A stretch of DNA of 64,000 bases from Nanobdellota archaeon (GTDB lineage Archaea; Nanobdellota; Nanobdellia; CSSed11-243R1): positions 2,906 to 66,905 of the forward strand of contig JAGGYW010000001.1 of the NCBI GenBank assembly GCA_021162365.1. Reading direction: 5' to 3'. Positions within the stretch are counted from its first letter, which is position 1. Each line of letters begins with the position of its first letter. Made by a program: the position numbers and the translations under genes. This document shows positions 16,808 through 24,774 of the stretch, piece by piece. A model generated the notes under the pieces. It ran no database searches. It was not told where the DNA came from and saw only the letters and a program-made list of their open reading frames with translations.

Positions 16808-17066
16808 GGGGCCGTGGTCTAGAAACCCTTTCTTCCCGAAGAAAGCGTTTACGGAAAGAAGGGAAAGTTGGACAACTTGGTCTAGGATGCGTGCCTGGGG
16901 GCACCCTTTCCGCCTTCTTTAGAAAAGAAGGTAGGTTGCCAAGAAAGGGAAAGAAAGGGTAGTCCGGAACGCACGTGGTCCCGAGTAAGCCTTTTCTTTG
17001 GAAAGAAAAGCCTTAAGGGAAAAGAAACCAGGATGGGCTTCGGGAGTTCAAATCTCGGCGGCCCCA
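16808..17066 (+). tRNA. tRNA-Pro (GGG) with three introns (D-loop, anticodon loop, T-arm 53/54)
   Basis: Acceptor GGGGCCG/CGGCCCC+A. D stem GTCT/GGAT. Anticodon stem CGTGC/GCACG with loop CTGGGG. T arm CCGAG-TTCAAAT-CTCGG. Approximate introns 16823-16878, 16901-16969 and 16986-17046 leave a 73-nt mature tRNA. Confidence 0.8.
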
Positions 17067-22596: not shown

Positions 22597-22609
22597 AACT
22601 TTTTAAAGC
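22597..22609 (+). promoter_or_regulatory. TATA-box candidate for tRNA-Tyr
   Basis: AACTTTTTAAAGC is centred about 30 nt upstream of 22632. Confidence 0.4.
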
Positions 22610-22631: not shown

Positions 22632-22787
22632 CCCGGCGTAGCTCAATGGTAGAGCGCACGGCTGTAGTGGGATGATGGAGAAATCCATCGTTGAAACCGT
22701 GAGGTTGCTGGTTCGACCAAGCCTTTCTTCCCGAAGAAAGCCTTGAGGGAAAGAAGGGGAGAGGCTTCGAGTTTCCGGCCGCCGGGA
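22632..22787 (+). tRNA. tRNA-Tyr (GTA) with two introns (37/38 and T-loop 58/59)
   Basis: Acceptor CCCGGCG/CGCCGGG+A. D arm GCTC-AATGGTA-GAGC. Anticodon stem CACGG/CCGTG with loop CTGTAG. T arm GCTGG-TTCGA..TT-CCGGC. Approximate introns 22668-22695 and 22717-22772. Confidence 0.8.
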
Positions 22788-22795
22788 CTTCAAAA

Positions 22796-22810
22796 GTTTT
22801 TTAAATATAC
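22796..22810 (+). promoter_or_regulatory. TATA-box candidate for tRNA-Asp
   Basis: GTTTTTTAAATATAC is centred about 29 nt upstream of 22832. Confidence 0.4.
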
Positions 22811-22831
22811 TCACCTAATGAAAAAGTTAGT

Positions 22832-23066
22832 GCCCCGATAGTCTAGCGACCTTTTCTCCCGAGAAAAGCTCGACCAAAAGAGGGAGAAAAGAGCGGACAA
22901 TGGCCTAGGATCCCGGTCTGTCGAGCGGCCCTTCTTAGAAAGAAGCGCCGGCGGAAGAAATTCCGGGAGTGCAGTAAGCCGGGGACCCGGGACACCTTTT
23001 CTTTCAAAAAGAAAAGCTGTACCAAAAGAAAGGGAAGGTGCGGGAATTCAAATCCCGGTCGGGGCG
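22832..23066 (+). tRNA. tRNA-Asp (GTC) with three introns (D-loop, anticodon loop, T-arm 53/54)
   Basis: Acceptor GCCCCGA/TCGGGGC+G. D stem GTCT/GGAT. Anticodon stem CCGGT/GCCGG with loop CTGTCG. T arm CCGGG-TTCAAAT-CCCGG. Approximate introns 22848-22901, 22925-22977 and 22992-23046 leave a 73-nt mature tRNA. Confidence 0.8.
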
Positions 23067-24660: not shown

Positions 24661-24774
24661 GGGCCCGTAGCTCAGCCTGGTCAGAGCGCCTGTTTCAAAT
24701 TCTCTCAGATTCACTTGAGTTTGAAGGTGATGCTTTTAACCAGGAGGTCAGGGGTTCAAATCCCCCCGGGCCCA
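24661..24774 (+). tRNA. tRNA-Lys (TTT) with an intron inside the anticodon stem (about 30/31)
   Basis: Acceptor GGGCCCG/CGGGCCC+A. D arm GCTC-AGCCTGGTCA-GAGC. The 5' anticodon stem CCTG|G is interrupted by about 39 nt (24693-24731). Loop CTTTTAA, 3' stem CCAGG, T loop TTCAAAT. Confidence 0.75.

Follow-up and report, generated by a model that had tools for sequence, protein, structure and literature searches.

Transfer RNA genes with several introns have been described in the Thermoproteales (Sugahara 2007/2008; Fujishima 2010), where near-identical introns also occur at different positions of different tRNAs (reviewed in PMC4090602). For DPANN archaea, Kaneta et al. 2018 (PMC5829648) report alpha4-type splicing endonucleases (EndAs) in Woesearchaeota, Pacearchaeota and other lineages with more disrupted tRNA genes, state that the tRNA sets of such lineages are incompletely predicted, and tie the association between alpha4 enzymes and disruption to the L3 (Nanoarchaea/ARMAN-2) loop. 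Apart from Kaneta 2018, our literature search returned nothing on a burst of tRNA introns in Nanoarchaeia. Here, we analyzed a 64-kb stretch of DNA (the window, G000:C6:2906-66905) from genome G000, a 0.72-Mb DPANN (Nanoarchaeia) assembly with 36% G+C and 91% completeness, in which tRNA-Tyr(GTA) (window 22632-22787) and tRNA-Asp(GTC) (22832-23066) stand side by side. The assignment to DPANN follows from the nearest public relatives, which are metagenome-assembled genomes labelled Nanoarchaeota, Nanoarchaeia, Parvarchaeota or Woesearchaeota. Both are very probably single, functional genes whose introns would be spliced by EndA and the ligase RtcB and are young and unstable, with repeat cores exchanged between genes. 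tRNA genes with a multi-intron layout are not new and are very common in G000 and its close relatives; less ordinary here are the loop-less alpha4 enzyme (the L3 loop being compared by description only) and the cassette that fills the introns.

The tRNA-Tyr gene, which like all features below lies on the + strand, consists of exon 1 (tRNA positions 1-37, 22632-22667), a 28-nt intron at 37/38 (22668-22695), exon 2 (positions 38-59, 22696-22717), a 56-nt intron at 59/60 in the T loop (22718-22773) and exon 3 (positions 60-73, 22774-22787), with CCA not encoded. These exons were supported by the cloverleaf of the spliced product, by a genome-wide tRNA census and, for exon 1, by a mature identity of 93-100% to relatives. 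The 37/38 intron forms its own hairpin (GATGGA/TCCATC, 22674-22689) and fits a relaxed motif, with a central helix of 3/4 pairs and an outer helix of 5 bp provided by the anticodon stem. The 59/60 intron fits the strict hBHBh' motif (central helix 4/4, outer helix of 5 bp provided by the T stem, inner helix of 12 bp), and it contains a module composed of a pyrimidine hairpin and a mirror purine tract. The tRNA-Asp gene consists of four exons (positions 1-15, 22832-22846; 16-37, 22901-22923; 38-53, 22977-22991; and 54-73, 23047-23066) and three introns: a 54-nt HBh'-type intron at 15/16 in the D loop (22847-22900; central helix GTCT/GGAC 4/4, outer helix 0 bp, inner helix present), a 53-nt intron with a strict bulge-helix-bulge (BHB) motif at 37/38 (22924-22976; central 4/4, outer 7 bp, inner present) and a 55-nt HBh'-type intron at 53/54 (22992-23046; central 4/4, outer only 2 bp, inner 12 bp). 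The comparison gene tRNA-Pro(GGG) (16808-17066), which was delimited by the BHB scan, the census and its relatives, also has introns at 15/16 (16823-16875), 37/38 (16901-16969) and 53/54 (16986-17046). An earlier reading of the same DNA (the original prediction) had described the 28-nt Tyr intron with its hairpin, the D-loop, anticodon-loop and 53/54 introns of Asp and the sharing of these three positions by Pro and Asp, and all of this is found here; its 56-nt insert in the Tyr T loop is likewise present with that length, and its placement is taken up below.

When the exons were joined, ARAGORN recovered complete cloverleaves of a 73-nt tRNA-Tyr(GTA) and a 73/74-nt tRNA-Asp(GTC), with predicted mature junctions GGTTCGAC|TCCGG for Tyr and GTCTAG|TGGCC and CCGGG|TTCAAAT for Asp. 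In the BHB scan, every position pair was tested for a 4-bp central helix, 3-nt bulges cut after the second base, and outer and inner helices. A 4/4 central helix was present at four of the five junctions (Tyr 59/60 and Asp 15/16, 37/38 and 53/54), the fifth having 3/4; since such a helix is expected by chance at a fixed junction in about 2% of cases, (6/16)^4, a chance origin can be excluded. Local minimum-free-energy folds also formed the central helix in four of the five introns, and both 3-nt bulges were unpaired for Asp 37/38 and Asp 53/54. The Asp junctions were confirmed independently of the splicing motif, because G039, a genome of the same class, carries its Tyr gene followed by a 3-nt spacer and a fully intronless 73-nt Asp gene, with which the spliced G000 Asp is colinear without indels. 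Position 59/60 is a structural twin of 37/38, each offering a 5-bp stem, four loop bases in the central helix and two in the bulge, and for this reason all 59/60 introns of the genome score as strict.

Conventional detection fails on these genes. With default settings, ARAGORN found no tRNA in the unspliced DNA of the 64-kb window, and in a search of the whole genome the Rfam tRNA model returned a partial match of 28.4 bits, below threshold, for Tyr and nothing for Asp. The sole Rfam tRNA in the window (24661-24774, 49.4 bits) was read by ARAGORN as Leu(CAA) with a 22-nt intron and was not solved by our census parser. ARAGORN with introns allowed was also tried on excised sequences; it proved too permissive, giving hundreds of conflicting calls, and was replaced by our own strict cloverleaf parser, which took the T arm and acceptor stem as anchors and allowed one intron per arm. 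Parser solutions scoring <12.3 were dropped as chained chance matches, mostly with four "introns". The 31 tRNA genes parsed with confidence contain 56 introns (3 genes are intronless, 7 have one intron, 14 have two and 7 have three), in a census that is incomplete by about 10 further tRNA genes (e.g. Leu, Asn, Cys, Met) left unparsed or uncertain. With a BHB-like helix demanded at non-canonical junctions, the introns fall at 37/38 (25), 15/16 (10), 59/60 (7), 53/54 (6), 14/15 (2), 56/57 (2) and four other positions once each; about 20 of them, roughly a third, have no outer helix. The comparison of intron positions across all tRNA genes, which the original prediction had proposed as a check, therefore gives 37/38, 15/16, 59/60 and 53/54 as hot spots. 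A similar density is known from Asgard archaea (bioRxiv 10.64898/2026.10.13.758758), which have about two introns per gene, many D-arm introns missed by standard callers, and repeated lineage-specific gains at BHB-compatible sites; in G000, most introns are filled by a recognisable repeat family.

The layout shared by Pro and Asp needs no special link between the two genes, because its three positions are genome-wide hot spots: about 1.6 genes would be expected to combine 15/16, 37/38 and 53/54 introns, and two were seen (Pro-GGG and Asp). The common D-region context GTCTAG...GGACAA, which had been read as a sign of such a link, is indeed present in both genes, but it is what the splicing motif requires, since GGAC pairs with GTCT of the D stem and AA supplies the 3' bulge. 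Endings of the GGACAA type also close the 15/16 introns of Glu-TTC, Glu-CTC and Val-CAC.

Nearly all introns, canonical ones included, contain the same module: a pyrimidine arm, a short loop, the purine partner, a spacer and a second purine tract mirroring the first. Among the five Tyr and Asp introns only Tyr 37/38 is without it. A strict pattern search found 89 modules in the genome and 0 in a shuffled genome, and at least 43 of the 89 are located within the 31 confidently parsed tRNA genes, which account for 0.4% of the sequence. Modules were also observed directly 3' of the intronless Ala-CGC, Pro-TGG and Arg-GCG genes and of Trp (at C9:28443-28477, C16:2897-2931, C9:48196-48230 and C21:108120-108148). 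The module is thus tied to tRNA genes even when it is not an intron, because copies adjoin intronless tRNA genes on the 3' side.

One explanation for the origin of the introns, close to the position-specific gain or spread suggested originally, holds that whole introns were mainly copied at the same position, so that the Pro and Asp introns would be homologous pairs. Several cases are of this kind: the first 42 nt of the 15/16 introns of Asp and Glu-TTC are identical, the Pro 15/16 intron of the sister genome G002 has an Asp-type core with the GAGC(A/G)GACAA end, and Gln-TTG and Gln-CTG (C20:6090-6331 and C21:136383-136521) share an identical 66-nt intron at 59/60. However, no surplus of same-position neighbours was found, the nearest relative lying at the same position for 12 of the 56 introns against 14.0 ± 3.6 for shuffled labels (P = 0.75). 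At none of the three positions are the Pro and Asp introns mutual nearest relatives; their closest kin are in other genes and mostly at other positions. Near-identical cores occupy Pro 37/38, Gly-GCC 13/14 and Gly-CCC 15/16 (local-alignment scores 88-91), and the Pro 15/16 core is nearest to those of Val-GAC 37/38 and Tyr 59/60. Between genomes, the Asp 15/16 core of G003, from another genus of the same family, shares 96% identity with the Pro 37/38 core of G000, and the Tyr 59/60 core of the sister genome G001 resembles the Asp 53/54 core of G000. Cores were also replaced at a fixed site between sister genomes with unchanged exons, as for Pro(GGG), whose exons are identical in G000, G002 and G003. 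The 15/16 intron of Glu-TTC (C2:26401-26576) is itself chimeric: the initial 42 nt match the Asp intron exactly and the final 12 nt the Glu-CTC intron, which points to recombination inside introns. On these sequence comparisons, same-site copying of whole introns is unlikely to have been the main route: the suggested spread between genes was right in spirit and single same-site copies do exist, but they appear to be a minority, and the moving unit seems mostly to be a core cassette that is independent of position.

Exchange of cores is accompanied by a rapid turnover of the introns at the Tyr-Asp locus. The Tyr 37/38 intron (13-30 nt) is class-wide, being present in all relatives inspected (G001, G002, G003, G056, G039, G024 and G007). 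The Tyr 59/60 intron is present in G001, with a different core, and in G002, and is absent in G003, G056, G039, G024 and G007. At Asp 15/16 there is an intron in G000-G003, with differing cores in G001-G003, and none in G039; the Asp 37/38 intron is 91% identical to that of G002. At Asp 53/54, G001 has an 88-nt intron, and G003 and G039 have none; G002 carries instead a 65-nt T-loop intron with an unrelated core, which BHB geometry places at 59/60. For this G002 intron the parser had returned 56/57, and for the G002 Pro D-loop intron "loop position 7"; sequence inspection and BHB geometry favoured 59/60 and 15/16, respectively, and the parser placements were rejected. Judged by their distribution among these sequences, the T-arm introns appear young and confined to the genus or family. 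Two further T-arm arrangements were observed in the family. The Pro(GGG) gene of G001 (L102, G001:C10, ~1560-1830), whose exons differ from those of G000 Pro, has 53/54 and 59/60 introns in one T arm and no D-loop intron, and tRNA-Asn(GTT) of genus g4 (L023/L024, G005:C17 and G006:C102) has an A-rich T-loop intron of ~24 nt without the module.

The Thermoproteales offer a close parallel to this behaviour. According to PMC4090602, they share with G000 up to three BHB/HBh' introns per gene, positions including 53/54, 56/57 and 59/60, and recent gain demonstrated by comparing close relatives, and the near-identical introns that G000 carries in several tRNA genes, at differing positions, resemble the transposed families of Fujishima 2010. 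They differ in that the G000 lineage belongs to DPANN (Nanoarchaeia) rather than Crenarchaeota and has a single alpha-type EndA without the crenarchaeal loop, that the G000 core is a defined hairpin and mirror-purine module which also occurs outside introns, and that the main non-canonical site in G000 is 15/16.

The enzymes expected to process these introns are encoded in the genome. EndA (C21:110870-111400, 176 amino acids) has an N-terminal and a catalytic domain (residues 7-71 and 82-168) and matches PF01974 plus PF02778 (102 and 80 bits), and RtcB is encoded by one gene (C19:17274-18575, 584 bits). The catalytic triad columns of 1a79 and 5x89, the latter triad being named in PMC5829648, align with Y112, H122 and K153 of EndA. 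By sequence, the closest structures are the M. kandleri and M. jannaschii enzymes; the alignment with M. jannaschii EndA (1a79) reaches 136.5 bits over residues 9-176 versus 5-171 with one 1-residue indel, and both proteins have the same two domains and a DxEGD-type C-terminal loop. This colinearity suggests that EndA assembles as a homotetramer (alpha4). M. jannaschii, whose EndA is the archetype of the strict alpha4 enzymes, differs from G000 in having few, canonical introns, against ~56 or more here.

The original prediction had advised a check of the endonuclease type, since broad-specificity forms accompany non-canonical introns in other archaea, and loop alignments and protein size set the encoded EndA apart from the known forms of this kind. 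The 11-residue crenarchaeal insert (KPxGVxKPK..., after GFYG, in the alpha subunits of Desulfurococcales/Sulfolobales) is a gap in G000 and in all Nanoarchaeia relatives aligned. The Lys/Arg-rich extension of the His loop in N. equitans (residues 90-98, PMC3488258) is also lacking, with 6 residues missing in the alignment to 3iey_A and the G000 loop reading GTTPGQEH. The three-unit epsilon form with ASL was not matched, as the protein has 176 amino acids against 395 for 4fz2 and aligns only with the alpha unit (residues 129-288). Set against the L3 account of Kaneta et al., the Tyr-to-His loop of G000 has the M. jannaschii length and no Lys/Arg (TTPGQE), L3 being compared by description only. 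Sequence alignment therefore characterises this EndA as alpha4-like with none of the known specificity loops, the L3 form of PMC5829648 again being judged from its description.

According to PMC5829648, alpha4-type EndAs cut only strict motifs, and efficient cleavage of relaxed motifs is confined to loop-bearing forms. A second endonuclease subunit or another enzyme could accordingly be supposed to handle the relaxed introns, either in the unassembled 9% of the genome or too divergent to be detected, and both the incompleteness of the assembly and the strictness described for alpha4 enzymes leave room for it. Yet a six-frame profile search of the open reading frames of the genome gave one EndA (E = 1e-86), with the next match at E = 0.08, and no beta paralogue, and among 25 relatives exactly one EndA gene was found in 22 of the 24 genomes with a match (173-203 amino acids, one open frame of 243), including the intron-rich G001-G003. 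An additional enzyme is thus improbable.

The architecture of this enzyme fails to explain the intron burst of the family f1 (relatives G001-G006, with G005 and G006 in genus g4). Taken only as a proxy for disruption, the number of tRNA genes recognised by Rfam (E <= 1e-6) is 10 in G000, 8-13 in G001-G003, G005 and G006, 29 in G004 (also f1), 32-43 in most other families and 5 in G016, from another family of the same class. These counts point to a lineage-specific burst; the sister families with 32-43 have an EndA of the same size. The f1 enzyme is without any insert, and G016 has one: its single EndA (C13:9540-10640, L118) is extended by 7 residues (GQQQGVK region) precisely where the crenarchaeal loop sits, which may represent a convergent gain. 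A comparison for EndA substitutions unique to the intron-rich genomes revealed no insert, and apart from a less basic catalytic loop no convincing difference emerged.

The register of the Tyr T-loop intron was also weighed. The position 58/59 given originally would yield the mature loop TTCGATT; this register likewise takes out 56 nt and leaves a 7-nt T loop, and the Tyr genes of G056 and G007, whose T arms lack an intron, have TTCGATT as their T loop. Against it, the 58/59 register reaches at best a central helix of 3/4, an outer helix of 6 bp and an inner helix of 1 bp, versus 4/4, 5 bp and 12 bp for 59/60, and so this alternative exon assembly gives the poorer motif. The 59/60 register also produces TTCGACT in G000, G001 and G002 despite differing intron ends, where 58/59 produces other loops in G001 and G002. 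BHB geometry and the congeneric T loops both favour 59/60, and there is little chance that 58/59 is correct.

That both genes are in use is suggested by their upstream regions and their conservation. A promoter-like A/T-rich element, AAC-TTTTTAAA-G (22597-22609), lies ~25-30 nt upstream of tRNA-Tyr, and a second one, TTTTTTAAATATA (22797-22809), ~27 nt upstream of tRNA-Asp; both were read from the sequence. A AAAACTTTT(T)AAA element precedes the Tyr genes of G001 and G002 at an equal distance, and an element like that upstream of Asp also occurs in G002, so that a TTTTTAAA-type element at about -27 of both genes is conserved in the genus. The element upstream of tRNA-Tyr may act as a promoter. 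In other genera, Tyr and Asp are 1-3 nt apart (L022, G003:C3; L026, G039:C6) with no promoter-like element between them, and these abutting pairs are presumably co-transcribed; in the genus of G000 the 44-nt Tyr-Asp spacer holds its own promoter-like TTTTTTAAATATA. The genome yielded only a single gene each for Tyr(GTA) and Asp(GTC), and across four family genomes the mature sequences are 88-100% identical, with introns that are 51-93% identical or replaced. Although the module can exist outside introns, being found in intergenic DNA and next to the 3' end of intronless tRNA genes, it is hardly credible that Tyr and Asp are decaying pseudogenes with an inserted repeat that is not removed, because they are the only copies found, their exons are kept as their introns vary, the end of each insert is complementary to its own exon context, the upstream element is conserved, EndA and RtcB are encoded, and introns interrupt ~28 of the 31 tRNA genes, a state that the cell could not survive without splicing.

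We propose that functional Tyr and Asp genes are each probably transcribed from their own A/T-rich promoter into a precursor with two (Tyr) or three (Asp) introns. In sequence and predicted folds, the 3' end of each intron can pair with the four exon bases that immediately precede the 5' splice site, which would place the cut sites in 3-nt bulges, and the hairpin of the module inside the intron would provide the inner helix. Given the gene content, the 176-residue alpha4-like EndA would cut the bulges and RtcB would join the exons. At 37/38 and 59/60, the anticodon stem or the T stem would serve as the outer helix and complete a strict motif; introns at 15/16 and 53/54, without an outer helix, would present the relaxed HBh' motif. 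The intron cores appear to be copied from a short repeat linked to tRNA genes, in which a mirror purine tract follows a pyrimidine hairpin; such cores would be swapped regardless of position, so that a few splice-compatible sites may persist while their cores turn over.

Several points weigh against this proposal. The minimum-free-energy fold of Tyr 37/38 lacks the central helix and extends the intron hairpin to 9 bp, and the central helix drawn for this junction has one Watson-Crick pair, two G-U pairs and one mismatch; in this model the intron is regarded as a relaxed case. That splicing takes place, in which order and at which exact sites is read from DNA and folds, the position counts are not motif-free owing to the helix that the parser demanded, and the assembly is 91% complete. 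Also, the ~20 introns without an outer helix stand beside an alpha4-like EndA that has no known specificity loop. A further, tentative proposal addresses this last point: the loop-less alpha4 EndA may routinely process HBh' introns at 15/16 and 53/54, and the burst may have come from a mobile cassette that seeded and overwrote introns at the few sites that allow a 4-bp exon-intron helix, and not from a change of the enzyme.

In conclusion, the Tyr-Asp locus is a clean and datable case of intron turnover, in which exons stay identical, cores are replaced between sister genomes and the T-arm site of Asp shifts. For enzymology, many relaxed introns stand here beside an EndA without any of the loops to which cleavage of relaxed motifs has been attributed, L3 having been compared by description only. 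For annotation, standard tools detect 0-1 tRNA genes in the window and ~10 of roughly 40 in the genome, and since most genes are missed in this way, the genomes of this family look poor in tRNA genes unless intron-aware parsing is used.

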